From Stegostoma tigrinum (taxonomy: Eukaryota): DNA of 64,000 nucleotides. The first letter of the stretch is position 1. The number at the start of each line of letters is the position of its first letter. The position numbers and the translations under genes are program-made. The notes beneath the pieces were generated by a model. That model ran no database searches and had not been told where the DNA came from. It saw only the letters and a program-made list of their open reading frames with translations. The stretch is from positions 30,920,784 to 30,984,783 of the forward strand of contig NC_081381.1 of the NCBI RefSeq assembly GCF_030684315.1. Direction: 5' to 3'. Positions 7,305 to 34,934 of the stretch are shown here, one piece after another.

Positions 7305-7604
7305 AGCTTTTGTGCTCCTGAGATGCTGCTTGGCCTGCTGTGTTCATCCAGCTACATACTTTGATATCTTATATCCATTTTATCAGGTTTGGCCACTTTT
7401 TTTCCCCAACTGGTGGTAACATTTTATGCCTCCTAGCCACTGTGCATGTAAAAGATCTTCTGACATTATTTTAAGAAAAACAGGGAAGATATCCCTCTTC
7501 AACATTGCATTCAATTATTTTAAATCATTGTCTCCAATGTATTTATTGTTTTCTCTAGAACTTGTTTAGAAATTAGGAGTTTCCCATTTAAACCACAGAT
7601 GAAA

Positions 7605-7739
7605 ACTGAAAGAACTGTGGAAGTTGTAAACCAGGAACAAAAACAGAAGTTGCTGGGAAAGCTCAGCAGGTCTGGCAGCATCTGTGAAGGAAAAAAAAAA
7701 ATCAGTTAACATTTCAGGTCCGGTGACCCTTCCTCAGAA
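7605..7739 (-). mobile_element. Short hammerhead-motif Penelope derivative (second family) with 20-bp TSD
   Basis: catttaaaccacagatgaaa (7585-7604) and catttaagccacagatgaaa (7740-7759); the sense strand starts ttCTGAGGAagggtcaccggacctGAAAtgTTA. Confidence 0.8.
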
Positions 7740-8189
7740 CATTTAAGCCACAGATGAAATCATCTTTCATTACCTCTCTCAGAGGGTCACAAGACTTTAG
7801 AACTCTTTTTCTAAAAAAGTTCATGGAAGCAAAGTCCATGAATATTTTTAAGGCTCAGGCAGATAGATTCTAGTTAAGCCAAAGGGTTGAAAGGTTATTG
7901 GGGTAAGTTGGAATACAGATTTAAAGTTATAGATCAACCATTTGATCAGCAGACAGGTTTGAAGTGCTAAATGGCCTACTTCTGCTTTCTGTTAGTATGT
8001 TCACTTTGCAGTCATACGCATGCTGTTCAGTCAGTACACTTTATCTGGTCACATCTTTAGTTTCTTAATCTCTCTAGGTTGGATATACATTTATTTGGGG
8101 GATATGGATATCACTAGCAGAGAAGCGTCTGTTACTCATCTCTGACTGCCTTGCAAAAGTGATAGTAAATTGCCTCAGAGTTGTAGAAA

Positions 8190-9198
8190 AAGTTCAAAGT
8201 GGAAACACACCCTACAGTCCAACTTGTCTATGCCGACTAGATATCCTAAATTAATCTAGTCCCATTTGCCAGCATTTGGCCCATAATCCTCTTCCTATTC
8301 ATGTACTCTTTTAAATGTCAATTGTACCGGCCTTCGCCACTTCCTCTGGCAACTCATTTCACACGTGCCCCACCTCCTGCATGTAAAGGTTGCCCCTTAG
8401 GTCCCTTTTGAATCTTTCCACTCTCACATTAAACCGAAGCCCTCCAGTTTTGGATTCCCCTACCTTGGGGAAAAGACCTTGACTATTCACCCTATCACTG
8501 CGCCTCATGATTTTATAAACCTCTATCAGGTCACCCCTTAGCCTCTGGCACTCTGGGGAAAATAGCCCCAGCCTATTTAGCCTTTCCTCATAGCTTAAAC
8601 CATCTAACTCTGGCAACATGCTTGTAAATCTTCTCTGAACCCTTTCAATTTTCGCAACATCCTGCTATGGCAGAGAGGTCAGAACTGAATGCAGTATTCC
8701 AAAAGTGGCCTAACCAATGTCCTGAACAGCCGCAAAATGACCCAACTCCTATACTCAATGCATTGATCAATAAAGGCAAGCATACCAATCACCTTCTTCG
8801 CTACCTTGTCTACTTGCAACTCCAATTTCAAAGAACCGTGAAGCTGCACTCCAAAGTCTCTTTGTTCAGTAACATTCCCCAGGACCTTGCCATTAAGTGT
8901 ATAAGTCCTGCCATGATTTGCCCTATTAAAATGTAGCACCTCACATTCATCTAGATTAAACTGTCTACCACTCCTCAGCCCATCTGATCAGGATCCTGTT
9001 GTACTCTGAAGTAATCATCTTCGCTGTTCACTACACCACCAATTTTGCAGATGATACCAAACTTACTAACCATCCCTCCTTTGTTCACATCCAAATCATT
9101 TACATCAATGATTAAAAAGCAGTGGACTCAGAACTGATCTTTGCAGCACACTGCTGGTCACATGCCTTCAGTCTGAAAAGCAACACTCCACCACTACT
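8190..9198 (-). mobile_element. CR1-type LINE 3' fragment (RT C-terminus and 3' UTR)
   Basis: ORFs 8679-8939 (LFRTLVRPLLEYCIQF) and 8359-8619 (LSYEERLNRLGLFS...RLRGDLIEVYKIM). Confidence 0.9.
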
Positions 9199-9407
9199 GA
9201 AAGAACCGTGGATGCTGTAAATCAGGAACAAAACAAAGTTGCTGCAAAAACTCAGCAGGTCTGGCAGCATCTGTGAAGGAAAAAACATAGTTAATATTTC
9301 ACGTCCAGGAGGAATGGTTACCAGACCCGAAATGTTAACTCAGTTTTTTTTCCTTCGCAGATGCTGCCAGACCTGCTGAGCTTTTCCAGCAACTTTGTTT
9401 TTGTTCA
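9199..9407. mobile_element. Fold-back Penelope derivative (second family) inserted in the CR1 fragment
   Basis: Inverted arms acaaagttgctg..ctcagcaggtctggcagcatctg and cagatgctgccagacctgctgag..cagcaactttgt; TSD tccaccactact / tccatcactact. Confidence 0.75.
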
Positions 9408-11149
9408 TCCATCACTACTCTGTCTCCCAGCTTTCTGCCAATTTTCTATCCAATTCTGTAGCCTTCTTGAACTGCTGTAGTCCTTGGGTGTACTTACCAT
9501 CCATTTCTTTTTTCCATGACACCTTTTGCCATTTAATTTTTCTTGTCCTCCTCAAGACCTTTCACTTGCTCAAAATTTATTATTTTTTCTATCTTTCCTC
9601 AAGTTTTGTTGAAAGAACATGAGCCTGATCGTTAAATGTTTTTCTCTCCATGGATGCTGTCTAACCTGCTGAATAGTTTAACCATTTTCTGTTTGTATTT
9701 AGAAGTTGAGTCTTTTGTTTGTATCTTTAAGATAGCTTTAAGCATATGTTCAACATTCACCTGTTTTGCAGATGTTTGCAGCATGAATACATGAAAGCCT
9801 ACAGGACAGAGTTCATATAATAAAATGAAAATCTCAGGGCATACAACCAGATATTCAAATTTTGCGTTGGAATGCCCATTATTCTGAAATCAATGAATAA
9901 TATTGGTTTTCAAAGCCAGGAGATGGGGTTTAGGAGAACATAAAGCTCAAATGCATGCACAGTACCCAAAAGACAAAGTAAAGTTTTACTTCTCCCATGC
10001 CACTGCAAATAGATTTGAATTACTTTGCATTCAATTTTTGAGAGTGCTCTGCATCTGTCCTTAATCATGGTAAAAACTGACTTACATATTGGGATCTCAA
10101 AATTAGATCCCCTTTGATTGTACATTCAAGCTTAATTCAGAGCTTGAGCTGGTGATGTGATTCCAGTGCAGTAGTATACAGGAGTAGGAAGAGCAGGAAT
10201 TCCATTGTGCAGAGAGAAAAATAATTGAACAGGAGAGAGGTAAGATGTAGTGCAAAGGGTTATTTCTAACACTAACTATTGAACATATACAGAGGAAGCT
10301 ACTTATTGATAATGTTATGATCACATAAGCTTCTGAAGAAGGAGCAACAACCCAGGTTGCGTGCTTTGCTAGAATGTATGTATTTAACATAATGTAAATA
10401 AAGAACTACTTTGAAAAAGTTGGTCTCTAGCTATATCCTTTGCACTGAGTAGTGCACTGTAAAACCTTCCAAGACACCGCCCAAAAACAAAACATGCTAA
10501 AGGAAAGTGTTGTTTGCAGACAAATTAGATAGATTCTATCACCTGTCCAGGTGATTTAAGTGGATACGAAAGCACATAAATGAAAGAATAAGTAAGTTCT
10601 TCAGGTGTCCTGTACAAAATCCTCCTGTGAGTGATGTGACCAAAAACAAGATAACTGGTTATTCATCTCATTTGCTCTGTGTGGGACTTTGCTAAGTCAA
10701 TACTTTGAAATCGGATTCATACATTTAAACTGATTTGGGCATTTCCGAAAGATATGACAAATGGCTACAGACGTCCTAATTCTCCTGGGAAAGGGGGATG
10801 GGAAACCTCAAAAGTAAGCCAGGAGATCAACAGACCAGAGGACAAGGAAAGGAACAGAAGAGTAAAAAGCCCAGACAGGGGTGAATGGGAGACCAAGATC
10901 ACAAAGGTGAAGCTGGAAACTAGAAGTTTGAAAGCAGGGCTCACTAAAGCCAAGATCAGAAAGAAATGGGAAATAGGGGGACCATGCCAAAAAAGGCAAG
11001 TGTATTCTCAAAATAAGCTAGTGAAATCCACTACAATACCTCGTATGTAGGGTAATTTATTTTTAACACCTGAATGATGACCTATGTTTCTCACGGTACA
11101 TATTTGCCTTTCATTTTGGAAATTTGCAGTGCAGCACTGGTGTTTATGT

Positions 11150-11505
11150 TTAGTGCAGTAATGGTAATGCCACTGGGCTGGTAATCATCACTCAGGTTAA
11201 TCCTCTGAGGTTCAAAACCGACCATGGCAGCTGATGAAATTTTAATTCAGTGAATAAATCTGGATTATAAAGCCAGTTTGAGTATTGGTAACCATGACAA
11301 TTTGTTATAAAAACCCATCTCGTTCACAATTGTCCATTTGGGAATTAAATCTGCTACCTTTAACTGGAATGGCCTACATTTGACTCCAGACATACAGACA
11401 AGTAATTGACTCTTAACTGCCCTCTGAAACGGCCGAGCAAGCCACAGTTCAACAGTAATTAGAGATGGGCAGCAATTGCTGGCCTTGCCAGAAACACCCA
11501 CAATA
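11150..11505 (+). mobile_element. tRNA-headed SINE with Deu-domain-like core (SacSINE1-like)
   Basis: Core ggcctacatttgactccagac...ttgactcttaactgccctctgaa and tail aattagagatgggcag...gctggccttgcc; same family at 35905-36270 (+) and 42530-42860 (-). Confidence 0.7.
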
Positions 11506-12444
11506 GAAGAAAAAAAAACAGGAGGGTTACCTCAAAATTGATAATAAAGACTTGCAATTCTATAGCACATTCATGACCTCAGGATGAATTAAAATGCTTT
11601 ATGGCCACTAAGTACTTTTTGAAGTTTAGTCACTATTGTAATGTAGAGAAAGCAACAGTTAATTTGCACACAGCAAGCTCCCACAAATAGCAATGTAATA
11701 ACGATCTGATATCTAAACTTATGTACTTGCATCCTGGAATGAGACTGAAATTCATAACCTTCTGTCTTGGGAGATAAGGGTACTATCAACTGACCTACAG
11801 CTGATACAAGATTTTTCTTTATTACGAAACTAGCTGACAGGAGATATTTAGGTTGTTTACCAAAACCTCCTCTTCCCATTCCATGTGCCTACCATTGTTT
11901 AAATGTCTCTATGCTTAAAGATACTGATGACATTGGTTATGCTGTTAATTTAAGAGGTTTGTTTGAGTGAAGTAAATGCAGAGGAGTAGTACCTTTCATT
12001 TCTACATACAGAGCAAATGGATATCCGCACTTTGAGGTGGAGATAGTGAAGGGAAGATGGGCATTAATAAAGGGTAGTGGGAGTGAATAAAGAGCAGGGG
12101 AGAGAGATAATGAAGGGGATAACGGTGGTAGTACTTGGATGGCAATGAATAAGTGATAAATGTGGAGAGAGGTAGGATGGTAACAACTAAGAAGGGGAGG
12201 GGTTGGGTTGAGCAATAAATAAGAAGGAAATGTTGAATGTGGGGAAGAAATAGGCTTTTTGAGAGTCCTGTGTATGAATAGATGTAGCTTTTAGCAAAAC
12301 AAAATAAAACCCTGCAGATATTGTGCCTTTTTCAACAAACCAAAAAGGTTGGGGGGAGGGAACAACATTTCTCTAGGGGAATTCTCCATGTAAACACCTC
12401 AGTCAGCGTCTACTTGCCAAACAATCAGTATCCTTTTTCCATGC

Positions 12445-12790
12445 ATAGAGTCATTGAGTCATACAGCACAGAAATGGACCCCTCAGTCCAACCAGTCCAT
12501 GCGAAATGTAATCCCAAACTAAACTGGCCCCACCTGCCTGGTCCTGGTCCATATCCCTCCAAACATTTCCTATTCATGTACTTATCCAAATGTCTATTAA
12601 ATGTTGTTATTATACCAACAACCACCATTTCCTCAGGAAATTCATTCAACACGTGAACTACCCTCTTTGTAAAATAAAAAATTGCCCCTCATGGCTTTTT
12701 AAAATCTCTCTCCTCCCATCTTAAAAACGTGCCCTCTAGTTTTGAAATACCCCATCCCAGGTAAAAGAAAATTGCAATTAACTCTAATCT
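12445..12790 (-). mobile_element. CR1 LINE 3' end
   Basis: Typical CR1 C-terminus and 3' UTR (TFNRHLDKYMNRKCLEGYGP) with ctatgact-type tail. Confidence 0.8.
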
Positions 12791-12889
12791 ATACCCCCCC
12801 CCCCCCATGTAGTATAAATTGTTGCTCCGTTTGAAATTTGATATTCTTGTAATTGTCATGATGACTGCAGGACAAAACATTTCAACAGC

Positions 12890-12955
12890 GTAACAAAGTG
12901 TGGAGCTGGATAAACACAGCAAGCCAAGCAGCATCTGCAGTTCCCATTATCTCTA
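12890..12955. mobile_element. Tiny Penelope derivative with internal inversion, 11-bp TSD
   Basis: atttcaacagc at 12879-12889 and 12956-12966; antisense half and sense half joined through the shared cagcatct. Confidence 0.75.
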
Positions 12956-12984
12956 ATTTCAACAGCATGTTTCCTTTTGCAGTA

Positions 12985-13400
12985 ATAAAGTTGTTACCCT
13001 GGTCCCAAAGGACGTAGGGCTGCTCGCTCATTAAACAGAGACGACCAGCGGTAGTTTAACCTGAGGGTCACCTCGCCTCAGGCAAGGGGTGAGCTCAAGA
13101 AGATGGGACCTTCATAGTGACCTCATGCAGTACTTGAATTCAATTCACATGTTGGTATCGCAATCCAGCCAGCCAAGTAAGCTACTCGACTCCCCACAGA
13201 GCAAAGTCGCCATAGTCCCAAAGACCACAGTACTGCTTTCTCAAGAGAGAGATGATCGGTGATGGCTTACCCTGTGAGTCACCTTGCAAGGGGAAGAGGT
13301 TGAGAAGGACAGACCTTCATGGTAACCTCAGCTAGTATGACAACTGAACCCATCCTGCTGGTGTTACAATCATACTCAGATTCTGTTCCGCCAAGTGACT
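12985..13400 (-). mobile_element. Two head-to-tail copies of a ~200-bp tRNA-derived SINE; another copy at 47200-47405
   Basis: Repeated ...tcccaaag(g)ac..gctgct..agagagatga..cctgagggtcacc..aggggtgag..ccttcat(g)gt(a)acctca; the 47200 copy keeps a B box (ggttcaattccc) on the minus strand. Confidence 0.65.
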
Positions 13401-14481
13401 ATATAAATCTGAGTTGTTGTAACCAGAATTTTCAACTGTAAAATGTGAACTTAAAATTTTCCATGAGGGTATGAACCCTAGGAGTTCCCTCCTTAAAGGA
13501 CTCATAACCAGATCTGTGTTTTTAATGTTTGTGTTCCTCCTTTGAGGCTTGCTGGTACTTGTTTCATTTTCCAAGTCATTAAAAGGTAAAGCTATGAAAC
13601 AAAATCGTTGAAAGCACTGAGGAGGTTACACAGCATCAGAGTACAGATAAGTGCAGTTAAGCTTCAGGTCAATGATCACTTATCATAATGAGAACAAGAT
13701 AAGAGGTTTAACAGTTTAGAAGCGAGTACAAAGCCGGATAAAAAGGAGGGTTACGCAAGGAGAGAGACAAGAAGCTGAGTTGTGGAACTGAGCTGAAAAC
13801 ATGGCAGCAAAACATAATGGGGAGCGTTAATAGATTATTAAGAAGCAAAATATGGGTCTAGAGGACGTGCTTAACAATGCTGGGTAGAGACATCAACTTT
13901 GTATGGCGAAGTATCTGTAATAGAACGGATATTCTTGAATTGTGGGCTTTTATGGAAATTCTATCATTGTTTTTCAAGCTGTTGGTCATCTTTTCCCAAA
14001 ATTTCCATCCCATCCAATGTTTTCATCACTGCTATTTTTTACTTTTCGTAGAGGGTGTTCTGTTCACTATTTTTCAAGCTTCGAGGTTGGCCTTTTCTCT
14101 CCCAAATTTTGTGTCAGTGCTAATTCCATGTCTTGTGGGCTTGAGATTTTCTGGAAGATATTTTCTCCTAGTTTTCTCTGCTGGCCTTCATGGGAAAGCA
14201 ACAAAATCGTAAATACCTTGGAAGTGGACCACGCTGTCTCCATGTTATTGTGTTCATTGGTCTTTGAAGGGGCGGATCTGCAGCTGAAAATAAAGCTGGT
14301 GTTTGGTTTGTAACTGCCCAGTTCGGAGGCGGTTTATGATGACTGTTGCTATGGTTACCGGGCTTGTTTTGAAGGTGATATTTCCCGGTTGGTAACATTT
14401 AACGTTCCCTTTCGTCTCAAACGGTTGCTGTTTATCTTCAACAATGTTGAAAAGATAAATCGGAGGTTTTAAACCTTCAAA

Positions 14482-14808
14482 ATGTCGGTGCGACGACTCC
14501 TGGCCCGCGGCCTGGACCTCAGCCGCTCGGCCTTGCGCCTCGTCAATCCCGCAGCTCGAGCTCGGGCTCAGGCGGGCGCGGCCTTTGTGCAACCCTGGGC
14601 CCAGCAGCCGCTCCAAGCCGTCCTACCCGCCCGCTACCGCTATTTCCGCCTGTCTTTGGGCGGCCTAGCGGCTCAGCTACAGCGCCGGGCGTCTTGGCAG
14701 CTCCGCGGGCCGGGCGGTGCTTTGCTGGCCTTCGGCCTGGGCCTGGGCTTCATCGAACAGCAGGTGGAGGAGGTGAGGACGAGCATCGCTGCCTGCGAGG
14801 AGATCCAG
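14482..14808 (+). CDS. PINK1: PINK1 exon 1 (mitochondrial targeting sequence, transmembrane segment with PARL site)
   Basis: MSVRRLLARGL...RYRYFRLSLGGLAAQLQRR...LLAFGLGLGFIEQ...ACEEIQ; donor CAG|gtaaat; CpG-rich. Confidence 0.95.
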
Positions 14809-14917
14809 GTAAATAAACGTCGGTCCGGGCATCGTTTGAACAAATAGATTAATGCTCCTTGCGATATGCTGCTTTTCCGTCTTGCTGTTGTCTAACAGCC
14901 GCCTGACTTTTCGCCGG

Positions 14918-15076
14918 ATAATAAAATGTGGAGGCAGAGACAGGCTGGACTGATGAAGGGTCTAGGCCCGAAACGTCAGCTTTTGTGCTCCTGAGATGCT
15001 GCTTGGCCTGCCGTGTTCATCCAGCCTCACATTTTATTATCTTGGAATTCTCCAGCATCTGCAGTTCCCGTTATCT
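14918..15076 (+). mobile_element. Short Penelope derivative with intact hammerhead core, perfect 15-bp TSD, in PINK1 intron 1
   Basis: ctgacttttcgccgg at 14903-14917 and 15077-15091. Confidence 0.9.
14950..14977 (+). ncRNA. Minimal hammerhead-ribozyme-like motif with consensus-intact core
   Basis: CTGATGA-a-GGGT(ctag)GCCC-GAAA-C-GTC; palindromic ACGT where stem III would be. Confidence 0.65.
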
Positions 15077-15384
15077 CTGACTTTTCGCCGGCTTCGCTGT
15101 AGGTGATAGTGGTGTTGGAAGCTAATTTTCTCAACGTCAATTTTAGGCGAAAGCCCCAAGTTGAATGCTCTCCTTTCTTACCTAAACTTTTATTATGATC
15201 TCTGACATGCACCTGATGTAGTTTACCTGATTAAGCTCTCTGTCAGTTTGGACGTCACCAAATTTTGACGGTCAACTTCCATTTAAACTTTGATATGATG
15301 GTCTAGGCTCTTTTGGTCCATTTTATTAAATAGATGCTGTGCAATCATATCCCAATAACTACCCAGCAAATTTTTTTAAAATGT

Positions 15385-15670: not shown

Positions 15671-16636
15671 GCCGTGCATAAGACATAAAATTGCCTACAG
15701 ACTTTGTATGAGCTTTAGCAATAAAAAATGTGTGATTTAGAAATGGACAACACAATATCCTACAGAGAATTTGAGTACTGAAGAACACGAGAAGAAATAG
15801 AAAGATTGACACTTTCAAAGTTTGAACCAGGAAGTGTAAGTTTTAATATTGAATTCACTGAGCAATTATGTTCAGAAAGCAAAAGAAAGATGAGATTAAG
15901 GAGTGGAGATATGGCAAATAAAAATGTTTAAAAATTTTTTAAAAATCAGTAAAATGTTTCCTAAATTTAATTTTCAAATATGATCTGTCACTATTTAACA
16001 CTGCCAATTGTAAACATGAACCAATAGGTTAACAGAGGACACACCTTTTGGAGAATTAGAAAACTGAGACAAAATAAGACTTAGTTGAGCAACAAAATGC
16101 CCAAATAGCAAAATTTCTGCTACATCAGTGAGCGTTGTTTTGACTTGCTTGATATAATTCGTTTTCTACCACAAGGAAGCTCGTACTAATAACATCTTGG
16201 GATATGGGGATAGTATTGGAAAATGGTTTTTGGGTGGATGATCAGTCATAATCTAGAATGGGAGCACAGATTTGAGGGACTCTATGTTCCTAAACATTCA
16301 ACATTATTATGAAACGTAGGAGTTTACCACAATGTCAGTCTTTCTTTCTTCATAGTCTGACAATGAAGCCGTAGCTTCATAATTTCCTAAGCAAGCCCTG
16401 GAGAATTGCACTGTTCGCTAGTGGTGAAGAATTTGGTGGAGTCATATTAATGGCGGATCTCTTCTTGGCAGAGCTTTGTTTTTGTTTTAAAATCAATTCT
16501 ACTCAAAACTGAATGGAGGTTTGGTTCATTCTTTATAACTACATTTGAAAAAGTTCCAATTTGCATAAATGTGCACTTATTTGCATATATTTGGTTAGTT
16601 AATGAGAATAATTGTTGAATTATTTCCATTTGCCAG

Positions 16637-17128
16637 ACATTGTTTAAAAGGAAGAAAATCAAGTATGAAAACTCCATGCCTTCACACACGAGTGGATATC
16701 GATTTGAAGATTACAAGATTGGATACAACATTGGAAAGGGGTGTAATGCAGCTGTGTACAAGGCCTTTATCCCTGAAGTACCCAAAACAAAAGCAAGTGA
16801 CAAGATCACGACAAAGGAGAAAGATGAAGTAGTTAACAGGCAGGTGAAGAGTGAAGGTCAGTGTGTCTCTGGTGAGGATTCTGGAGAAAGAAAGAAGGTA
16901 GCGATTACACAGGAAAACTCAAGTTTGAGTTTTGTGATTTTGAAAAAAGAAATGTTAACAGACTCGCTGAGGGCTTGTGAAGGAGACACCAGCAACCCCT
17001 TGAGAGTTTCTTGTGGAGGCAGCAGTTACCTCCTGAGGGCCTTCGAGGAAGACACCAACTACCCCCTGAAGGTACCTGAAGGAGAAACCAGCTATCCACT
17101 TGCTCTAAAAATGCTTTGGAACATAAAT
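16637..17128 (+). CDS. PINK1: PINK1 exon 2 (Gly-rich loop, expanded insertion 1, catalytic Lys)
   Basis: ttgccag|ACA; IGKGCNAAVYKA...YPLALKMLWNIN; AAT|gtaagt; 492 nt, phase 0/0. Confidence 0.95.
16967..17098 (+). repeat. Coding tandem repeat, 4 x 33 bp (11 aa)
   Basis: LRACEGDTSNP / LRVSCGGSSYL / LRAFEEDTNYP / LKVPEGETSYP. Confidence 0.8.
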
Positions 17129-17911
17129 GTAAGTCAAACATTGAAATGCACAATTTGTTGTTTGAGCCAAGTGGAAGATAACCATATGCTGGTGATGTGG
17201 CACGAGACTTGCAATTGGAATTTCTTTTGCTTCCAATAATTTGTCTGCAGTGCTTTCAATTTAAAATACTTCTGTCTTTTATTGTAAAAAGGTGCATTCT
17301 TTAAATTTACATTTTTTTCCTGTAAAACACAATTGCTTGTCAATGTAATTAATAGCCTTAATAATAAGTGTGTAACATCAGGACGAAATCAAAGCAAAAC
17401 TAAGAATCGAAATATTTGCCATGGATGAGTGAAGTCCCTACATAGGCCCGAAATAATTGCACATAAGAAAACAAGTGACCATCAGAACTAACCATATCTG
17501 ATGTGCAGCCTGTGGAGGATTTAAAGTTTGGCAGTGCTATAGTGGTAACACTTCCTAAAATCATTATGGAGTGGATCATTGAGGGGTAAGTGACTGTAGA
17601 TGGTTGTGAAGATGTATTTAATTGTATTTCTCTCATGTTTAAGCCTCTCCATGCCTTAAAGCATGAAAACCTTTGCAATTTCTTTTGCATCAAAGTGATG
17701 CTCAACAGGAGAGGAGTACTGGAGATAAGTTTAGAAATTAGCTTCTTGAATTCATTTGAGTTTTGATCCAGAGGCTCTCTAGCCTAGAAAGCTAGTATTG
17801 GCTGTCTTCTGAGCTACCACCATTAAACTGTCAGGTCTAGATTTGAGACATTTCTGTACTACTTGTTGATGTGATTCAGTCACATCAATCAGTTAACATG
17901 CTACACGGTTG

Positions 17912-19330
17912 ACCAACACCTTCCACCCCAACCTCAAGTTCACCTGGGCCATCTCCAACACATCCCTCACCTTCCTGGACCTCTCAGTCTCCATCTCCGG
18001 CAACCAGCTAGTAACTGATGTCTATTTCAAGCCCACCGACTCCCACAGCTACCTAGAATACACCTCCTCCCACCCACCCTCCTGCAAAAATTCCATCCCC
18101 TATTCCCAATTCCTCCGCCTCCGCCGCATCTGCTCCCAGGATGAGGTATTCCACTCCCGCACATCCCAGATGTCCACATTGTTCAAGGACCGCAACTTTC
18201 CTCCCCGCAGTGGTCGAGAATGCCCTTGACCGCATATCCCGCATTTCCCGCAACACATCCCTCGCACCCCGCCCCCGCCACAACCGCCCAAAGAGGATCC
18301 CCCTTGTTCTCACACACCACCCCACCAACCTCCAGATACAACGCATCATCCTCCGACACTTCCGCCATCCACAATCCGACCTCACTACCCAAGACATTTT
18401 TCCATCCCCACCCTTCTCTGCCTTCCAGAGAGACCACTCTCTCCGTGACTCCCTTGTTCGCTCCACACTGCCCTCCAACCCCACCACACCTGGCACCTTC
18501 CCCTGCAACCGCAGGAAGTGCTACGCTTGCCCCCACACCTCCTCCCTCACCCCCATCCCAGGCCCCAAGATGACTTTCCGTATTAAGCAGAGGTTCACCT
18601 GCACATCTGCAAATGTGGTATACTGTATCCATTGTACCCAGTGTGGCATCCTCTACATTGGGGAAACCAAACGGAGGCTTGGGGACTGCTTGCAGAACAC
18701 CTCCGCTCGGTTCGCAGTAAACAACTGCACCTCCCAGTCGCGAACCATTTTAACTCTTCTCTCCCCCCCCCCCACCACCACCTCTCATTCTTCAGACGAC
18801 ATGTCCATCATAGGCCTCCTGCAGTGCCACAAGGATGCCACCCGAAGGTTGCAGGAACAGCAACTCATATTCCGCTTGGGAACCCTGCAGCCCAATGGTA
18901 TCAATGTGGACTTCACCAGCTTCAAAATCCCCCCTTCCCCCAAAACCAGCCCAGTTCGTCCCCTCCCCCCACTGCATCCCAAAACCAGCCCAGCCTGTCT
19001 CTGCCTCTCTAACCTGTTCTTCCTCTCACCCATCCCTGCCTCCCGCCTCAAGCCGCACCTCCATTTCCTACCTACTAACTTCATCCCACCTCCTTGACCT
19101 GTCCGTCTTCCCTGGACTGACCTATCTCCTCCCTACCTCCCCACCTATACTCTCCTCTCCACCTATCTTCTTTTCTCTCCATCTTCGGTCCGCCTCCCCC
19201 TCTCTCCCTATTTATTCCAGAACCCTCACCCCATCCCCCTCTGATGAAGGGTCTAGGCCCAAAACGTCAGCTCTTGTGCTCCTGAGATGCTGCTTGGCGT
19301 GCTGTGTTCATCCAGCTCCACACTTTGCTA
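17912..19330 (+). mobile_element. Penelope-like retroelement (same family as 5581-7365) in PINK1 intron 2
   Basis: RT C-terminus (FLDLSV...FKPTDSHSYL), CNRRKCYAC linker, GIY-YIG motif VYCIHCTQCGILYIGETKRRL; hammerhead motif 19241-19268 with GAAA>AAAA; TSD acacggttg at 17903-17911 and 19331-19339. Confidence 0.9.
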
Positions 19331-22843: not shown

Positions 22844-24131
22844 GTAAGCAGTTCAAGCACTGGAAGATGTGTATGTTTAGGGGCTGAGAGCTGAAGGATT
22901 AGCTGTGGTCCATCATCTGTCATGCTTGAGCTTGGAAATGGTGAGCTGGAGGGTTTGTGAGGGAGATGGTGAACTGAGAGAGGCACAGCTGTGAGCTGGA
23001 ATGGTAAGCACTGAGCGGGAGGTGACTTAAAGAATTACTGAATTATTAATATTTGAAAATAAAAATATATATAGAACATATTAATGCCACTGATTTTAGT
23101 TATTGAGAAATTGGTTTTATAGAACTATTAAAGACAGTCAACACATTCAAACCAAAAGATTTTTTTATAGTGAGTTTGAAACGATTTTGATTCCTAGCTG
23201 TCTTCTACAAATTGTAATGCAAAGATTCTTGTAGCTTTCTACTTTGAGCTTCTCAAACTGGAACAAAAGGTCCTTGTTTTGAACCATTGTTTAAGTTCAA
23301 ATTTTGGCAAAATACAATATAAAAACTAAGAAATCCATCTCAGTTATGGTCATGTCATGGTTATGGGACTGAACATAAAGCTTAGAGGTTGAGTTCAAAT
23401 ATTAGCTATGTAACAGGTTCTCCCTGTCCATTTTATTCAGACCCATTGTGATCTTAAACATCTATCAAATCTCCATTATCAGCCTTCTCTCTATGGAAAC
23501 CAGGCCTAACTTCTCCAATTTTTTTGTTTCATAACTGAAATGTATTATCCCTGGAATCATGCTCTTAAACCTGTTCAGCACTGTTTCCAATGTATTCACA
23601 TCCTTCCTGTAGTACGTCCAGGACTGTATACATTACTGCAATTGAGATCTAACTAGTCTGTTATTTAAGTTCATCATTGTATTCCATGCCCTTATTTGTG
23701 AAGCCTGTAACATGGTATACTTTAACAGCTCTCTCTACCTGCCTGCCATCATTAATTAAATATACACATACCTCCCAATTCTCTCTGCTCCTGCTCACCT
23801 TGTGGAATAGTACCATTTAGTTTGTACTGTCTGTCAACATTATCTGTACCAAAGGGTATCTAATTTGCTTTAAACCTCATCTGCTAATTATCTGCCTACT
23901 CCACCAACAGATCTACACTATTGTTCTTGCGAATTACAATTCTCCCAAGTTTTGTGTTGTTAGTAAACTTTAAATAATCCCCTAGATCATTTGTATATTT
24001 TGAAGTCTACTTCAAAACTTCTTCCAACCTAAACAATTACCCATCAGTCAGTACTCTTTTTATTTATCTCTGAGAAAATTTTGTATCTGTGTTGCCAATT
24101 TCCCTTTAATTCCATGACCTATAAGTTGTAT

Positions 24132-24260
24132 CAGAGATAGTAGGAACTGCAGATGCTGGAGAATCTGAGATAACAAGGTGTAGAGCTGGATGAACACAGC
24201 AGGCCAAACAGCATCAGAGGAGCAGGAAGGTTGATGTGTCGGGCCTAGACCCTTCTTCAG
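24132..24260 (-). mobile_element. Short hammerhead-motif Penelope derivative
   Basis: Sense strand starts CTGAAGAagggtctaggcccGACA (core mutated); TSD aagttgtat / aagttatat. Confidence 0.75.
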
Positions 24261-24282
24261 AAGTTATATTACAGGTTTGTAG

Positions 24283-24765
24283 TATAAGACCATAAGACAT
24301 TAGGAGTGGAAGTAAGGCCATTCGGCCCATCAAGTCCACTCCGCCATTTAAATCATGGCTGATGGACATTTCAACTCCACTTCCCTGCACTCTCCCCATA
24401 GCCCTTGATTCCTTCTGAGATCAAGAATTTGTCGATCTCTGCCTTGAAGGCATCCAACGTCCTGGCCTCCACTGCACTCCGTGGCAATGAATTCCACAAT
24501 ACCACCACTCTCTGGATGAAGAAATGTCGTCTCATTTCAGTTTTAAATTTACCCCCTCTAATTTTAAGGCTGTGCCCACATGTCCTAGTCTCCCTGCCTA
24601 ACGGAAACAACTTGCCAGCGTCCACCCCTTCTAAACCATACATTATCTTGTAAGTTTCTATTAGATCTACCCTCAACCTTCTAAACTCTAATGAGTACAA
24701 TCCCAGGATCCTTAGCCGTTCATCATACGTTAAACCTACCATTCCAGGGATCATCCATGTGAATT
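24283..24765 (-). mobile_element. CR1 LINE 3' end
   Basis: ORF 24371-24772 (LTYDERLRILGLYSLEFRRLRVDLIETYKI...QRVVVLWNSLP); (cttatgg/t)n tail; older LINE debris at 23430-24120. Confidence 0.9.
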
Positions 24766-25018
24766 GTACCATATGGTACTGTTTTGAATGCCTTTCAGAA
24801 GTTCTTTAGGAAATCAACATGGAAAGGGTAGGGATGAGAAAAGACACCATTCCAGAGATGGCACTTGACCATGTGAACCTGTAAGACACTTCTGCAAGTG
24901 TTGTTGCCTTTTTAAAAAACTGATGCATTACATTTGAAAATCTTTGTAGTTAGTTATTTAACCACATCTTTTTAGCAGGAAAAATGCAGAGCTAACAGTT
25001 GTGCGTTTTCTGCCTCAG

Positions 25019-25811: not shown

Positions 25812-25866
25812 GCAAGTGCACTTCAAACAAACAAAAAACATGTGAGGCCATTACTTGTATGCAGTT

Positions 25867-25999
25867 GTATAAAACAAAGAACTGCAAATGCTGGAGATCT
25901 GAAACAATAAAGAAATTGCATGTAAAACTCAGCAGGTCTGGCAGCATCTGTGGAAAGAAAGCAGAGTCGATGTTTCAAGTCCAGTGACTCTTCATTAGA
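25867..25999 (-). mobile_element. Short hammerhead-motif Penelope derivative with perfect 14-bp TSD in PINK1 intron 6
   Basis: acttgtatgcagtt at 25853-25866 and 26000-26013; sense strand starts tCTAATGAagagtcactggacttGAAAcATC. Confidence 0.8.
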
Positions 26000-26138
26000 A
26001 CTTGTATGCAGTTAATTTTTGTAGTGGTTGGATATATTTGTAACTGCAGTCAGAGCCACCAGTTTATTGGTGACTAAACAAGGCTGATTTGATAGTGCAT
26101 TATATCATAAATTTAATCCATACTCCTGTACTTCCCAG

Positions 26139-27658: not shown

Positions 27659-27910
27659 CGTCTGTCAGCGAGAGTAGCTGCAGACATGCTTCACCTACAC
27701 TTGTGGGGGCCAGAGCTCCTTGCCTCAGCTCCGATCACTGTGGAGAATGTTTTCAGATGGCTTCGATGCCAGACTCTGCTCACCCTCCTGCAGGTTTCGA
27801 AGAATCATAAATTACCTGTGGAGATCGAACTAAAGAGAAGCTTCTTGGCAAATCTCAGTTTTGAAGAACTAAGGCTCGGACTAGATCTGCTTCTACATGT
27901 GAAAACCTAA
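27659..27910 (+). CDS. PINK1: PINK1 exon 8 (C-terminal region, stop)
   Basis: ctcacag|CGT; RLSARVAADMLHLHLWG...ELKRSFLANL...*; spliced CDS is 1881 nt (626 aa) and in frame; several AATAAA follow (e.g. ~27929, 27991, ~28734). Confidence 0.93.
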   Translation, partial: RLSARVAADMLHLHLWGPELLASAPITVENVFRWLRCQTLLTLLQVSKNHKLPVEIELKRSFLANLSFEELRLGLDLLLHVKT

Positions 27911-29059
27911 ATGAGTTCACATCAATCAATAAAACACTCAGTTTGAAAACAGAATTTGGTGAAACCACTGCTACTAATTATGGATCTAGGAATAAAACTA
28001 TGCATTTAGTTCATAATTTAACTACATGAATAAAATTCAAAATGTCTAGAACATATCCTGCCTGAGCAGTTAATAAATACTTAATGCCATATATTACTTT
28101 TCTGACATTGAAGAGAAATAAATGACTAGATTAAATATGTTTTTTTTTGATCTGCAAGAGCTGATAAATAAGTACATGGATATTGTGGCTAATCTTGTAT
28201 TTAATCCATAAATGTGCTAAGCCTGCCAATCTGAAATGAAGGTCAGCATGCTATGACTTGTGTTTCTTGCATAACTTTGTACTGTACCTTGACCTTTAAA
28301 TCTGGAACTCAACACCTCTTGTGACCAGTAAAAGCCCAGATGAGAGTCTGAAGTCCACAGTGCATGACACTGTCAAGTTGTAAAGTGTATGAGAAGAATT
28401 AAAACAAATTATTGTGTAGTGATGGGTGACACAAAGTGTAGGTTTTCAACACATGTAGATTACCACAGCAATGGGAAAACGAGTCAGTGTAAAGAATTCC
28501 AGTTTTAGGATTTTTTTGGGGAGAAATAAATTTGTGGCTATAGGAAGTATTAATCCTGTGGGCCTACTTTGTTTATCATCTGCAGGTTCCATTTCTGGAA
28601 AAGGTCTTGGAAATAACTGGAACATTTTTCTGCAGCTTGTGTTTATCTTACAGTTACATTTAGGTACTGAGCTATCTAACTAGTCATTCACATTGATGCA
28701 CAGATATATTTTCAGTCTGTTTAAAGCTACATAAATAAACAGTATCACCTGAAATTTGAACCTTTGATTTTTTTTTTCATTTACATTGACTTGTTTTTGC
28801 TGTTCTATAAATCATTAATACCCAGCACTCTGATCTCTCATGAATCAACATCAGCCATTAAAGTTTGAAAGAATCATTTCGACTCAAAATGTTAATTCTG
28901 TTTCTCTCTCTATAGATATTAACAGACTTGCTGAGGTTCTCCAGCACTTTGTTTTTTTTTCAGTAATTCAAATATGTTTTTCAGGTGTGACATAAACTTC
29001 AAAAATACTGTCAGGATGATCCTTCACAACATTAGAAGTTTGTTATCATTTAATGTTCC

Positions 29060-29755
29060 AACGATAAGGTGAAACACACAAGATTCTGGAGGGACAGTGT
29101 AGATACCGCTAGGCTGTTATCTCTGGCTAGGGAATCTAGAACATGGGTACAATCTCAAGATGAGGTGGTCATTTAGTTCTGAGATGAGAAATTTCTTCAC
29201 TCAATGGGTTGTGAATATCTAAAATTTTTAGCCTCAAGGAGTTGTGGATGCACCATGGTGCATCTCAACTTTCATTACATTAAGATGTTTGGTCTTGGAA
29301 TTCAGGGATTATAGGAACTGAGCACGAAAGTGGTGTTGAAGCTGGATGTGAGCTTTGATCATATTCGAGTTATAGAGAAGCACAGCACAGAAACAGACAC
29401 TTTGATCCACCTCATCCACGCTGACCAGATATCCTAAATAAATCCATTTGATTGCCAGCATTTGGCGATATCCTTCTAAATCTTTTCTACTCATCTACCC
29501 GTCCAGCTGTCTTTTAAATTTTGTTATTGTTCCAGCCTCCACCACTCCCTCTGGAAGCTTATTCAATACACACATCACCCTTTATGTGAAAATGTGTCCC
29601 TTAGGTCCCTTTTAAATCTTTCCACTCTCAAACTAAACCTATGTCCTCTAATTTTGGACTTTCCCACCTTGGCGAAAAGACCTTGTCTATTTACCCAATC
29701 CTTGTTCCTCATGATTTTATAAACCTCTATGAGGTCAACCTCAGTCTCTGATCAG
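29060..29755. mobile_element. Two CR1 3' fragments in opposite orientations
   Basis: A plus-strand CR1 C-terminal remnant (~29060-29360) abuts a minus-strand CR1 3' end (~29370-29755). Confidence 0.7.
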
Positions 29756-30454
29756 TAGATATACAGTGCCATCCTGAAAATTCCCCCCCAACTCAACACT
29801 GTCATCTAATATACTACCTCTACACATCCAGCACTCAACAGAGCATGGGAGAATTTAAATAGGATAAGTGGATTGGGCTAAGCAAGTTGGATGGGATGAG
29901 TCTCATTTGGAGCTTAATCACCGGTTTGCATGTTTGCCATGCATGACACGGCTCTGTGCAATGTACTCTATGTAGAAATTGATTGGAAAAATGGGGATAA
30001 GTTACTTCAGGGATGTAAGTGACCTAATCTCACACCCTATTAACCACTATCTGTATGAGGTTAGTGGAAAAACAATTGTTTTATGTACAGATATCTCACA
30101 CCACCTTACAAAGCTGAGGCAAAAACTTTGTTGAAAAGATGGATCTTGAGAATGAATGCAGTGGAGGAAGTGACATTGTGGAGATATGAAAGCCACAGAA
30201 ACATTTCAAAATAAAAATGTTGAATTCAGACCTATGGAACATAAGGAGCTTAAAAGATTTCAGGGTATGAAGTTTGAAAGGTGAAATTTAACTGTTGTAG
30301 AAAAAAGCCACCTAAGCAGTAAAAACAATGAGAAAATTCTGAAAGGGATTTTGATGGTGGGTGTTTAAGTCAAGATGTTAAATAAGTAGAGGCTACATCA
30401 GAACATAAGAGCAAGAGAAGACCATGAAAGTCCTTAAGCCTACTTCACCATTTG

Positions 30455-30702
30455 TGACTTTCAGTCGATCTTTCAAAAGATCAGAAGTTGATGGAGGGTG
30501 CCTGCGTATTCTCTTTGCCTGGTCCCTATGTTCCAGGTGGTAGTCAACTCAGCTGATTCACTTCCCATTATAGCTGAATCAGCTATCATGGCAAATGGAC
30601 TGGTTGATTTGGTCACCACCTGGAACACTGGGTCCAGGCCAGGAAGATATACAAGCACCCTCCTTCAACTTCTGATCTTTCTAAAGATCAACTGTTAAGT
30701 CA
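30455..30702. repeat. ~250-bp imperfect palindrome (MITE or fold-back element)
   Basis: aaagatcagaagttgatggagggtgc...ttccaggtggt mirrors accacctggaa...gcaccctccttcaacttctgatcttt around the centre atagctgaatcagctat. Confidence 0.85.
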
Positions 30703-31572
30703 AGAATGCATGGCATGATCTTGGGATATTGATGTAAATGTGCAATAGTGATTGTTACAGTATAAGTAACAAATATGGGAGAATATGCAGTGAAAATGCA
30801 TTGATGGATGGTTCCTGGGCATGTACATCTATTTGACAAAAAATTATTGTCTCCTGGAAGACTAAAAAAAACAGCTGAAATGATACGGTATACAGTAGAT
30901 GTTAGGTACACATTACACGTAGAGAAACTGACTTTAAAACCATGAAAGTGGTCGTAACAAAAAGGAGATAAAATTAAAATAAAAAGAGTGATTTGCTGTT
31001 AGGTCAAAATGTAAGCGATGAAGGGGTGTGAACTTGGAGGAGGGAGGATTATGGTGAGCTGATTGTCAGCCATCATATGACATGCGATTACCTCAACTTC
31101 AATGTTGGAATGGGACATGTACCCAGTGTACAAATCAGTTTGTAAAATCGTCTGATTTATGTTTATACAGGCTCACTCAGTGGGTTACTATGTAAGAATA
31201 GTGGTAAGGAAAAGCCAGGGAATTATTAGACCAGTGAGCTTGACATCAGGGGTGGGCAACTTTGTTGGAGGGAATCTTGAGGAACAGGATTTACGTGTAA
31301 ATGGAAAGGCAAGGACTGATTAAGGATAGTCAACATGACTTTGTGTGTGGGAAATCATGTCTCACTAATTTAATTGCATTTTTTGAAGTAATGAAGAGGA
31401 CTGATGAGGGCAGAGCGGTGGAAGTGACCTATATGGACTTCAGTAAGGCACTCGACAAGGCTCCTCATGGTAGACTGGTCAGCAAGGTTAGATCACATTG
31501 GAATACAGGGAAAACTAATCAATTGGATACAAAACTGGTTCAAAAATAGAAGACAGAGGGTGGTGGTGGAAG

Positions 31573-32030
31573 TAATAATGGGAACTGCAGATGCTGGAGA
31601 ATCCAAGATAACAAAGTATGGAGCTGGATGAACATAGCAGGCCAAGCAGCATCTCAGGAGCACAAAAGCTGAAGTTTTGGGCCTAGACCCTTCATCAGAG
31701 AGGGGGATGGGGAGAGGGAACTGGAATAAAAAGGGAGAGATGGGGAGGCGGACCGAAGATGGAGAGAAAACAAGATAGGTAGAGAGGAGAGTATAGGTGA
31801 GGAGGTGGGGAGGGGATAGGTCAGTCCAGGGAAGATGGACAGGTCAAGGAGGCAGGATGAGGTAGTAGGTAGGAAATTGAGGTTCGGCTTGAGGTGGGAG
31901 GAAGGGATGGGTGAGAGGAAGAACAGGTGAGGGAAGCAGAGACAGGCTGGGCTGGTTTTGGGATGCAGTGGGGGGAGGGGACGAGCTAGGCTGGTTTTGG
32001 GATGCAGTGGGGGAAAGGGAGATTTTGAAT
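31573..32030 (-). mobile_element. Penelope-like element 3' region with hammerhead motif, inserted in CR1
   Basis: Reverse complement of the 3' part of the 5581 and 17912 elements; CTGATGAagggtctaggccc at 31698 going leftward. Confidence 0.85.
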
Positions 32031-33274
32031 TTTCAGACTGGAGGCCTGCGACCAGCAGTGTGCCAGATGGGTTGGTGCTTTTCATACTTTATATATATTA
32101 TTTGGATGTGAACATGGGAGGTATTGATAGTAAGTTTGCAGATGACACTAAAATTGGAAGTATTAGTGGACAACTGGTATGCCATAGGGACGAGTGCTGT
32201 GGCCACATTTATTTACAAATTACTTGGATGAAGAAAGTGAATGTACTACAGCAAGCATTGCAGATGACACAAAAATGATGCAAATAGTTTGCAGATGGAT
32301 ATAAATGGGTTAAGCAAGTGGGCAAAAGCTTGGCAGATAGAATATAATGTGAAATGTGAGGTTACACACTTTAGTAAAAAGAACAGAGGAGCTAAATTAT
32401 TTAGAACTGTGAAGAAAACTACAGAATAGAGGAATTTGGGAGTGTCAAAAAGCAAGCATTCAAGTTCATTGGATAATAGGGAATGTAAGAGGAATATTGA
32501 CCTTTATTTCAAGGTAAAAAGACTTTTTTCCCAGGGTGGAAATGACTATTACGTGGGAGTATAATTTTAAGGAACTTGGAGGAAGGTAAAGGGGAGATGT
32601 CAGAGGTAGGTTCTTTACACAGAGAGCGGTGGGCGTGTGGAATGCGCTTCCGGCAATGGTAGTGGAGTCAGTTGGTTTAGAGGCTTTTAAGCGACTCTTG
32701 GAAAAGCACATGGAGGATAGTAAAATGTAGAGTATTCAGGGTAGTTTGATCTCAGTAGGATAATAGGTTGGCACAACATCGTGGGCTGACGGGCTTTACT
32801 GCGCTGTATTGTTCTATGTTCTAATGTAAAAGTGGGAAGGATTTGTTAAATCTATCCAAGGCACCGTTCAAACCACAGCCAGAATATTGTGCACAATTTT
32901 GGGCCCACGTCTAAGGAAAGATGCACAAACACTGGTGGCAATCCAAAGAGGGCTCACTCGGCTGATACCAGTTACAGAGGGACTGTTTTATGAGGCAAAG
33001 TTTGGACCTGTACTTACTGAAACAAACAAGAATGAGAGGTTACCGCATTGAAACATACAAGATTCCTAGGGGACTTGAAAGGGCAGATGTTGGAAGGTTG
33101 TTTCCCCTTGTGGGAGAATCTAAGACATGAGGGCACAATCTCAGACTAATGGATTGAATGCTTGAATCAGAGATTAAGAGGAATTTATTCTCGCAGAGGG
33201 CAGTTAATTTGTGGAATTTCTCGAGGCTGAATCATTAAGTGCACTCAAGGCTGAGGTAGATAGATTTTTAATCA

Positions 33275-33403
33275 AATAAAAAAAGAAGCTGTGAATGTTG
33301 ATGATCTGAAACAAGAGTAGAGAATTCTGGAGATAATCAGCAGGTCTGTAAGCAGCTGTGGAGAGTGAACAGGTTAACATTTCGTGTCCAGTGACCCTTC
33401 TTC
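33275..33403 (-). mobile_element. Short hammerhead-motif Penelope derivative with 13-bp TSD
   Basis: agatttttaatca at 33262-33274 and 33404-33416; sense strand CTGAAGAagggtcactggacacGAAAtgTTA. Confidence 0.8.
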
Positions 33404-34934
33404 AGATTTTTAATCAGTAAGGAATCAAGAGTTATGGGGAAAAAAGGCAGAAAAGTGGAGTTGAGGATATCAGACCATCAATGATCTTATTGAATGGCAG
33501 TGCAGACACAGTAGGTTGAATGGCATAATTCTGCTCTTGTGGCATATGGTTTATGATTTGCTTATGCTGGATGTTTTGCAATGGTTTAAATACATCTTCT
33601 TTGGTCATCAAGTCCTGGAGAGGGATGTAAGACTGGACCTTCTTGCTGAGAGGCAAGGAAGCAATCCTCTGCATCTTAAGACCTGCTCTTGCTACAATTA
33701 TCCTGTGTAATTTTGTTTCATAGGGAAAATAGAAGATAATCTGAATCATTGAAACATAATTCAATTTATAAGGACAATTGGAAGTTGTTACTTATTTGAA
33801 AATAAACAGCCAAGAAAATATTCGCTCTTCTTATCCCGGAATTATTTAGATGCTTCAGGGAACAAATGCATTGCCCACCAAGCTGTACAAAGCAGGATAG
33901 TCTTAGGTTCGATCTTAGTCTTTGTCATGTTAGGTGGTTTCAGAGCTGCAGCTGACAAGTGGCAATGCTCATCAATATCCCTGGAGTGTAGAAGCAAATA
34001 TCAAACACGGTTTGTGTTCCCAATCATTATCCAGTGACCCCCAACTTAAAAGCAGTCATGGCAAAGACATGAAGATGACAATGGGCTCAGGTATGAGTAT
34101 GACGCTTCCTGTAACAAAATACTCTGATGGTCACCGAGTAACCTGTTCGTGAAGAGTAACCAGTTTGATGTAGAATAAGAATGTGTTCATCTTTATGGAA
34201 CTCAACTGCATGAAGGACCAGTACCTTCTGGACAAAAAAAACTTACAAATTTGAATTACTTCTTTAAAAAATCATTCACAGGACAGGGGCATTGCTGGCT
34301 GCGCCAACACTTCTTGCCCAGGAGAACGTGGCAGCCATTTCAGTTCATGTGTTGTTAGAGCACCACGGTGCTTTTAGGGAGGGGTTTCCAGAATTTATGA
34401 CCCAGGAACAGCAAAGGAAGGGTGACCTAATTCCAAATCAGGATGGTGTGAAGATTGGAGGTCCAGAGACAATTTTAGCCAAACTGTCATAAGGCAGCTG
34501 CTGCAAAATATCTGCTTCCACTAGCCAGACTGTGAAAGCCTTTGGTTTAGGGTGTTATATAGTAAGGGGATATGATCAGCTGACACAGTTATAACGATTG
34601 TTGCAATCACAGAGAAAAACATTTTCAATTCAGGTAGATGTCTTTAGGAGAGAGAAGGACCAGTAGCAGTTTGACGGTGAGTTTGTGACATTGCCACCTG
34701 AAGGTAAGTCTGTTTTGCTGCTTCCCTGGGCAGAGTGAAGCGAGGTCACGAAGAACAGGAGGGAGACAAATCAGACAAAGCTGGGATATAAAAAGCTTCA
34801 GAGTGACATTGGCAGGTGCATTGGGGTGGGTCACCAGTGTCAGATTGGAAATGGGAAGTTGATGGCTCCAAATAAAAAAAGAGAAAATCCACTTTAAATA
34901 AACTCCGAGGCCTGAGTAGACTTGCTACATACAG

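Follow-up and report, generated by a model that had tools for sequence, protein, structure and literature searches.

Short hammerhead-bearing repeats of Stegostoma tigrinum are terminal modules of Neptune-type Penelope-like elements with a shared 5′ boundary and asymmetric inverted pairs

Introduction

Penelope-like elements (PLEs) are the closest retroelement relatives of telomerase. Here we examine a 64,000-nt stretch of the Stegostoma tigrinum genome (contig NC_081381.1, positions 30,920,784 to 30,984,783; hereafter, the window), in which a preliminary description had pointed out four ~130-nt insertions beginning at a hammerhead ribozyme motif and had attributed them either to a discrete non-autonomous unit, akin to a retrozyme or a short interspersed nuclear element (SINE), or to a structure-imposed stop of reverse transcription, mobilized in both cases by Neptune-type PLEs of the same window. 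For endonuclease-containing (EN+) PLEs, the accessible sections of earlier accounts describe a pseudo-long terminal repeat (pLTR), an optional tail of 30-40 bp and an adjacent inverted copy, and mention in qualitative terms that the tail can be present on one end only (PMC8557442, PMC3846280); the clade feature used here, a CX2-5CxxC linker preceding the endonuclease, is defined in the same literature, as far as its available text goes (PMC8557442). According to the available part of the work on the anole Poseidon element PAc, both target strands are nicked and extended in vitro, with reverse transcriptase (RT) starting at two internal sites, one on each side of the tail, and this activity is independent of ribozyme cleavage (PMC11167929). 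In D. virilis Penelope, an internal promoter has been placed in the pLTR, according to the accessible portion of that study (PMC2377424).

We find that the short units are dead-on-arrival insertions of the PLE terminal module and not a new mobile element. They display a strong and real pattern within an ordinary class of repeats, in which the pairing of one long with one short arm in inverted insertions and the concordance between the two arms go beyond what the preliminary description had noticed.

Results

The short units are terminal modules of Neptune-type elements

Positions within the module are counted from the C of CTGANGA, the hammerhead core box (+1). All four insertions of the preliminary description lie on the minus strand, and their sizes (129-135 bp), flanking target-site duplications (TSDs; 9-20 bp) and 5′ junctions at or near CTGANGA, with starts no more than 2-3 nt from +1, were confirmed. 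The family B solo unit at 7605-7739 (135 bp, long tail) starts at -2/-3 before CTGAGGA (7737), has an intact core and is flanked by a 20-bp TSD with one mismatch (7585-7604 and 7740-7759). The cores of two units are mutated, as had been stated: GAAA has become GACA in the family A2 solo unit at 24132-24260 (129 bp, long tail), the 9-bp TSD of which (24123-24131 and 24261-24269, one mismatch) was recognized by eye and went uncalled by the TSD script, and CTGANGA has become CTAATGA in the family C (B-like) solo unit at 25867-25999 (133 bp, start at -1/-2), with a 14-bp TSD at 25853-25866 and 26000-26013. In the family D (B-like) solo unit at 33275-33403 (129 bp), the CT of the CTGA box falls within the 13-bp TSD (33262-33274 and 33404-33416).

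To place these insertions in a genomic context, we used a sample of 724 kb, composed of 66 evenly spaced 10-kb stretches and the 64-kb window, which contains 242 fragments of the module, or approximately one per 3 kb. Extrapolated from 221 fragments in 660 kb, the 3.2-Gb genome would hold ~1.07 million fragments, and ~0.41 million copies starting at the boundary described below if arms of pairs are counted singly. The 3′ end of the module lies either at ~+92 (short end, S) or, with a 35-nt tail, at ~+127 (long tail, L), the solo copies dividing into 50 S and 45 L; the notion of a defined ~130-nt unit therefore holds for the four insertions but not as a single size.

The short units are almost certainly copies of the terminal module of Neptune-type PLEs, extending from the minimal hammerhead to the tail. 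Long copies consist of a GIY-YIG-type frame with a C-x4-C-x2-C linker, a pyrimidine-rich untranslated region (UTR) and then the module, so that the parental open reading frame (ORF), encoding RT and, C-terminally, a GIY-YIG region, sits directly upstream of the module. In the window, two broken, plus-strand PLE copies illustrate this arrangement: a 5′-truncated one at 5574-7366, with an RT fragment, the GIY-YIG region, the 3′ UTR, a hammerhead at 7276 and a short end, and a second one at 17909-19330, with a hammerhead at 19241. The linker is found ahead of a GIY-YIG-like domain in their ORFs (6242-7279 and 18057-19097), bearing out the proposed Neptune-type partner, even if the linker is not exclusive to Neptune, as Nematis carries it too. 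The RVT_1 match of the 5574-7366 copy is weak (E 0.0095), and a Pfam scan of the window frames gave no GIY-YIG hit; protein-atlas matches include GIY-YIG clusters at 0.95-0.97, with GIY-YIG on 11-27% of the members. The module follows the 3′ UTR and also precedes the ORF N terminus, i.e., it has a pLTR arrangement, and the optional 30-40 bp tail, inverted 5′ copies and TSDs are all present, as expected for EN+ PLEs. The attribution of the units to PLEs carrying a minimal hammerhead, made in the preliminary description, is correct.

Long parent copies exist in families A1, A2 and B. In a tree of 99 family A modules (93 columns, poorly resolved), 54 short and 45 long copies interleave, with 27 label changes against a mean of 32 after shuffling; the resulting label clustering is slight (14-20 of 500 shuffles were as low) and inflated by paired arms and tandem copies. 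One short family A copy is identical to four long ones, and there is no short-only clade. At this tree resolution, the short copies appear to form no separate lineage, nor did a SINE lineage distinct from its partner's end emerge. Given long parents in three families and the interleaving of short and long copies, the units do not constitute a separate SINE or retrozyme, and the start positions reported next likewise lend no support to the discrete non-autonomous element envisaged in the preliminary description.

A fixed 5′ boundary at the edge of the hammerhead

The 5′ start was scored in 160 of 164 family A and 67 of 69 B-type (B/C/D/G) fragments, hits cut by a sample edge and very short hits having been dropped; nine E/F copies are shown apart, and local alignment blurs start positions by a few bases. 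Starts at -7 to +3 account for 52/160 family A and 32/67 B-type copies, corresponding to stop rates per nucleotide of 0.068 and 0.112, respectively. Downstream, the rates are 0.0068 and 0.0085, and upstream, 0.002 and 0.003. The rate at the boundary is thus ~10 times that downstream and ~35-40 times that upstream (Poisson P 1e-33 for A and 7e-25 for B-type, both overstated, as both arms of pairs were counted). The shared 5′ boundary is real genome-wide and does not reflect random truncation, just as had been argued from the four insertions. It is smeared from +1 to approximately -6, and in base counts the parental letters are gradually lost between -1 and about -6. Inverted pairs contribute more than half of the boundary starts through their arms (30 of 49 family A starts at -5 to +3), and the TSD finder, which is weak on solo copies, called 14 of 57 boundary copies.

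The boundary is not restricted to short units. Among 20 of 44 post-tail matches, the flanks of which were inspected by eye, seven ORF-reaching copies start at -5 to +1, eight extend upstream, three start inside the module and two lack it; hence, the boundary serves as the 5′ terminus for copies continuing into the ORF as well.

Several candidate causes were considered. Hammerhead cleavage as the boundary setter was rejected, as starts show no peak at the cut site (+25 to +34 holds 12/160 family A and 3/67 B-type starts). A splice acceptor was rejected as a general cause, since CAG precedes -2 in family B but no AG is found in A1 and A2; the short copies share no common upstream exon, which weighs against such a boundary as well. 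A terminator-like hairpin in the complementary DNA (cDNA) was not supported either, its stability relative to shuffled sequences giving z scores of 0.03, 0.64, 1.10 and -0.88. With -4 taken as a transcription start, the parents read YYANWYY in A2, B and F and YCTYTYY in A1, according to the initiator/TCT consensus given in the table of PMC4581360; comparison by eye with that table yielded no clear match for the spacing of the downstream promoter and motif ten elements. In contigs from three presumed-RNA sequencing runs of another organism and one unlabelled run, loose ends fall before -1 and beyond +93 or +130/133; they echo the genomic junctions and are silent on RNA ends and expression.

Inverted pairs combine one long and one short arm

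All 61 TSD-flanked head-to-head insertions consist of one L and one S arm. These pairs (52 of family A and nine B-type) include 40 from unselected stretches and the window and 21 from search-selected loci; random pairing yields L+S in 202 of 392 cases and a false TSD in one of 392. TSDs of close pairs measure 9-18 bp, mostly 14-16 bp (38 of 45 pairs). The S arm reaches further toward the 5′ end in 14 of 43 pairs, the L arm in 13, and the two are equal in 16; sequence unique to each arm is present in 14 of the 43, and the L arm amounts to the tail only in four. Because the S arm extends further 5′ in 14 of 43 pairs, neither arm was copied from the other, and simple snap-back does not fit.

The two arms also agree in how they treat the boundary. 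Among family A pairs in which both arms reach it, 13 are edge-edge, 11 long-long and two mixed, one of the latter being an alignment overrun. Unselected loci alone yield nine edge-edge, six long-long and no mixed pairs, compared with 7.2 mixed pairs expected if the arms were independent (P 5e-5). Long-long arms may differ by up to ~900 nt and still be joined (e.g., 1181 and 287 nt). Near-palindromic pair centres are common, and in six of 12 pairs, the partner ranks first, alone or tied, when an arm is matched to ~145 copies.

Some pair centres, such as those at the sampled loci L065, L063 and L112, contain short templated repeats of boundary sequence between the arms, which we take to resemble repeated priming or polymerase-theta-type joining. 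At the 3′ junctions, TSDs often open with 1-4 bases that continue the element sequence, a feature that may point to microhomology at priming; it differs from the in vitro description of these junctions as "not homologous."

The hammerhead motif

The module contains the core boxes, helix II, a palindromic minimal helix III and a short helix I, i.e., a minimal type I hammerhead. CTGATGA is found in 96 of 112 A1 copies, helix II spans 4-5 bp, and GAAACGTC/T is present with CpG decay. Helix I is only 2-4 bp long, with its 5′ edge at -4 in B and at -2 in A, and the ribozyme cut site is at +29. Pair 4 of helix II is U-G in A1 (110/112) and U-A in B (52/58), representing few independent changes, and pair 2 is A-U in two of six family C copies. 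In minimum free energy folds of both monomer and dimer, an alternative, inactive hairpin is preferred. An Rfam scan of the window returned no hammerhead match up to E=1, only microRNA (miRNA)-like false matches on fold-backs, and the phage sequence collection gave no match.

At +35 to +56, modules of all families feature a pyrimidine tract and AG followed by ATG, which resembles a splice acceptor and is clearest in family B; no splice joint at this site is listed in the contigs of the four sequencing runs mentioned above.

Other copies in the window, tandem derivatives and neighbouring sequence

Overall, the window contains ~12-14 copies of the motif in two main sequence families, in agreement with the dozen motifs and at least two families previously reported, and besides the four insertions it holds about a dozen further copies, among them five pairs in head-to-head orientation and four broken long copies of PLEs ending in the module. 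A fifth unit, of family A1, occupies 14918-15080 on the plus strand, with +1 to +131 at 14950-15080 and, ahead of it, a 32-nt remnant of a short arm in inverted orientation; its 15-bp TSD (14903-14917 and 15077-15091) was recognized by eye. The head-to-head pair at 5945-6106 (L arm +29 to +131, S arm +35 to +93; 14-bp TSD) is nested in an older PLE copy (5832-7366). The other pairs are a family B pair at 9196-9406, with the L arm from +17 and the S arm from +3; a small pair at 12891-12954, with an 11-bp TSD and an L arm reduced to the tail; a pair at 54797-54980, with the S arm from +9, the L arm from +36 and a 15-bp TSD; and an older pair at 59483-59684, joined at the CTGANGA box. A short solo copy at 4405-4466 (minus strand, 11-bp TSD) starts at ~+30, near the cut site. 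A minus-strand PLE 3′ fragment at 31575-32029 (hammerhead at 31698, long tail) extends past the boundary, an older related PLE copy of family F lies at 38211-39782 (minus strand, hammerhead at 38304), and a decayed old B-like module copy at 28865-28975 (plus strand).

Elsewhere in the sample, internally deleted mini-elements comprising the module, the ORF start and the UTR end are arranged in tandem at L068:6763-8434 and L083:4982-6183, with periods of ~440 and 300 nt, respectively. These repeats lie inside single TSD-flanked inverted insertions and retain an intact hammerhead in each repeat. The tandem derivatives fit the definition of a retrozyme far better than the 130-nt units, and they may stem from circular or multimeric RNA.

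Among the neighbouring sequences of the window, 40412-40990 is a host exon of the arginase family (PF00491), presumably agmatinase-like. The host frames at 14473-14847 and 16619-17239 gave no hit in a Pfam scan; we take them to resemble PINK1. The unit at 14950 directly follows the first of these frames. Fragments of another repeat family, which we assume to be similar to long interspersed nuclear elements of the CR1/L2 type, are found at 24371-24805, 8202-8663, 29382-29750 and 61237-62198. A direct repeat of ~350 bp (88%) links 50144-50500 and 51445-51794, and a 113-nt hairpin at 30522-30634, a weak match to a miRNA model, is possibly akin to a miniature inverted-repeat transposable element.

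Discussion

The observed two 3′ ends, shared 5′ boundary, L+S pairing and arm concordance lead us to lean toward a model in which priming takes place from two nicks at two internal sites, with run-off near -4. The element RNA would begin ~3-6 nt before CUGANGA, most likely because transcription starts there from an internal RNA polymerase II (Pol II) promoter; the endonuclease would nick both target strands ~14-15 bp apart, and RT would prime internally at two sites ~35 nt apart (+92 and +127), one site per nick. From a module at the 5′ end of the RNA, RT would run off after ~95 or 130 nt, producing a strong-stop-like cDNA that could join the other target end through 1-3 nt of microhomology, resulting in a solo unit, or join the second cDNA, resulting in a head-to-head pair with one L and one S arm. 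From a module at the RNA's 3′ end, RT would proceed past the boundary and generate long copies, and hammerhead cleavage would play no part in setting the boundary. RT probably uses one start site per nick and probably runs off near -4. We consider it likely that the boundary corresponds to the end of the RNA template, and give almost an even chance to this end being the transcription start, a reading prompted by four related families in which an initiator- or TCT-like sequence has its +1 at -4. From the genomic junctions, the 5′ end of the PLE RNA is predicted to lie near -4.

A number of points weigh against this model. In vitro, the choice of start site by anole PAc was the same for both strands, as stated in the available text (PMC11167929), and the D. 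virilis start is located far upstream of the hammerhead, where an intron ends at helix I, according to the accessible parts of two studies (PMC2377424, PMC4209133). Helix I has its 5′ edge at the very position that looks initiator-like, and such motifs are common in pyrimidine-rich DNA. At -4, the 28 A2 short copies have 16 T and seven A, and the parent has A; the signal of a cap-derived G is weak (seven of 14 solo copies ending exactly at -4 and two contig joints); and the boundary is a smear rather than sharp. Exceptions to the L+S rule appear once the TSD filter is lifted (the rule applies to 42/43 pairs in A and 14/18 in B). Furthermore, the 17 edge-inside pairs may conceal edge-long pairs trimmed at the join, which would void the concordance argument, and later deletion at palindrome centres could also leave the arms unequal.

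The principal alternative, which we regard as unlikely, is a block on a longer RNA, with RT stopping at the 5′ edge of the hammerhead because of a protein or a fold, or with a 5′-3′ exonuclease trimming read-through RNA to that point. The match between the boundary and helix I at its 5′ edge (-4 in B and -2 in A) is in keeping with it, as are the A1 monomer fold, a 30-nt hairpin with its 5′ edge at +1, and the effect of the PAc protein on hammerhead folding in vitro, reported in the available text of PMC11167929. Yet few stops occur where RT would enter the structure (12/160 and 3/67 at +25 to +34), the cDNA hairpin is no more stable than shuffled sequences (z scores given above), and independent stopping predicts approximately half of the pairs to be mixed; concordant arms are, in turn, also expected from exonuclease trimming. 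The structure-imposed stop of the preliminary description is accordingly left with weak support: its placement at the hammerhead edge stands, but the scarcity of stops at the 3′ face of the structure, the unstable cDNA hairpin and the concordant arms speak against it.

We deem it improbable that most short copies derive from short masters, i.e., from self-sufficient SINE-like units that start at -4 to -6, keep the promoter and priming sites and are re-mobilized in trans. Short copies are indeed more numerous than long ones, at 28 vs. 10 in A2, 19 vs. 7 in B and 11 vs. 1 in C, the A2 short copies differ from their long parents at -4, and label clustering on the tree is slight (14-20 of 500 shuffles as low); however, that tree of 93 columns is poorly resolved and its clustering inflated by paired arms and tandem copies, no short-only clade exists, the two kinds of copy occur in the same subfamilies, and one of the short copies does not differ from four long ones. 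A non-LTR retrozyme, the monomer of which would be freed by hammerhead cleavage, circularized and inserted, is very improbable and has been largely refuted by the junction data: the minimal type I hammerhead is present, and known retrozymes derive from pLTRs, as the accessible text of a preprint states (bioRxiv 10.64898/2026.07.22.740005), but starts are not in excess at the cut site (+29), where a monomer would begin, the ends show no permutation, helix I measures just 2-4 bp, and no tandem array of the 130-nt unit was found in the window or seen among the sampled copies. Similarly remote is the origin of inverted pairs by self-priming on an antisense template, with the boundary marking the antisense RNA end (self-priming is proposed in the available portion of PMC3846280). 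Near-palindromic centres and the best or tied partner match in six of 12 pairs (among ~145 copies) would be compatible with such an origin, which leaves the strict L+S pairing unexplained and conflicts with 14 of 43 pairs, in which each arm has sequence that the other lacks, and with four in which the L arm is tail only.

Two-nick priming with run-off, if correct, gives the repeats a broader meaning. Tentatively, and with chances that we place somewhat below even, the ~0.4 million copies record a PLE intermediate with two nicks, two priming sites and an RNA starting at helix I, the units being integrated strong-stop cDNAs and the hammerhead overlapping the promoter. Each unit would then carry a promoter together with the sites for priming and might function as a SINE-like element transcribed by Pol II. 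The fixed 5′ edge, the rule of one long plus one short arm, and arm concordance represent genome-scale constraints on the mechanism of PLE transposition, bearing on how these elements form pLTRs, tails and inverted ends and on the role of the hammerhead; they tie the two start sites seen in vitro to the two target strands and argue against ribozyme cleavage defining the RNA that is copied.

Comparison with known systems

Two familiar processes offer analogies. Retroviral minus-strand strong-stop DNA arises when cDNA synthesis, primed internally and close to the RNA 5′ end, runs off the template; run-off from an internal primer is alike here, with neither a transfer RNA primer nor an integrase. 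In the twin priming of L1, two primers are supplied by two target nicks; the two-nick priming is alike, but unlike in L1, the arms overlap in sequence.

Among PLEs, the closest counterparts are 5′-truncated insertions of EN+ Neptune elements, which, in the available sections of PMC8557442 and PMC3846280, share with the insertions studied here the terminal module, the ~35-nt tail, the inverted head-to-head layout, TSDs of 9-22 bp and a parent with the Cys linker and GIY-YIG; the fixed start at the hammerhead edge, the near-strict L+S count and the concordant passing of the boundary by the arms go beyond the descriptions in those sections. Our literature searches on PLEs, with most subscription papers outside their scope, retrieved no report of such a fixed start or L+S count, and a look-up by sequence returned nothing. 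The solo minimal hammerheads described by Cervera and de la Pena (2014; PMC4209133) are the same, as far as the accessible text goes, in the CUGANGA box, the single unpaired base before helix II, the G10.1-C11.1 pair, the lack of a helix III loop and the short helix I, and they too are mostly single motifs, ascribed to truncated PLEs; that text proposes cleavage and circles as processing, whereas here the cut site is preceded by genomic starts at a distance of ~30 nt. The PAc system of anole Poseidon (Frangieh et al. 2024; PMC11167929), as described in the available part of the paper, similarly has two internal RT starts on either side of the tail, a little more than 100 nt away from the hammerhead, acts on both strands by nicking and extension and can dispense with cleavage; it differs in belonging to another clade and in using the two sites without strand specificity in vitro, and genomic 5′ junctions are no part of the analysis in that text. 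Finally, non-LTR retrozymes, according to the accessible text of PMC7229834 and bioRxiv 10.64898/2026.07.22.740005, are likewise derived from pLTRs, non-coding and equipped with a type I hammerhead, and exist as dispersed monomers as well, but they are characterized by tandem repeats, cleavage-defined monomers and circular RNA, in contrast to the units described here, which are solo or inverted and are not delimited by the cut site.

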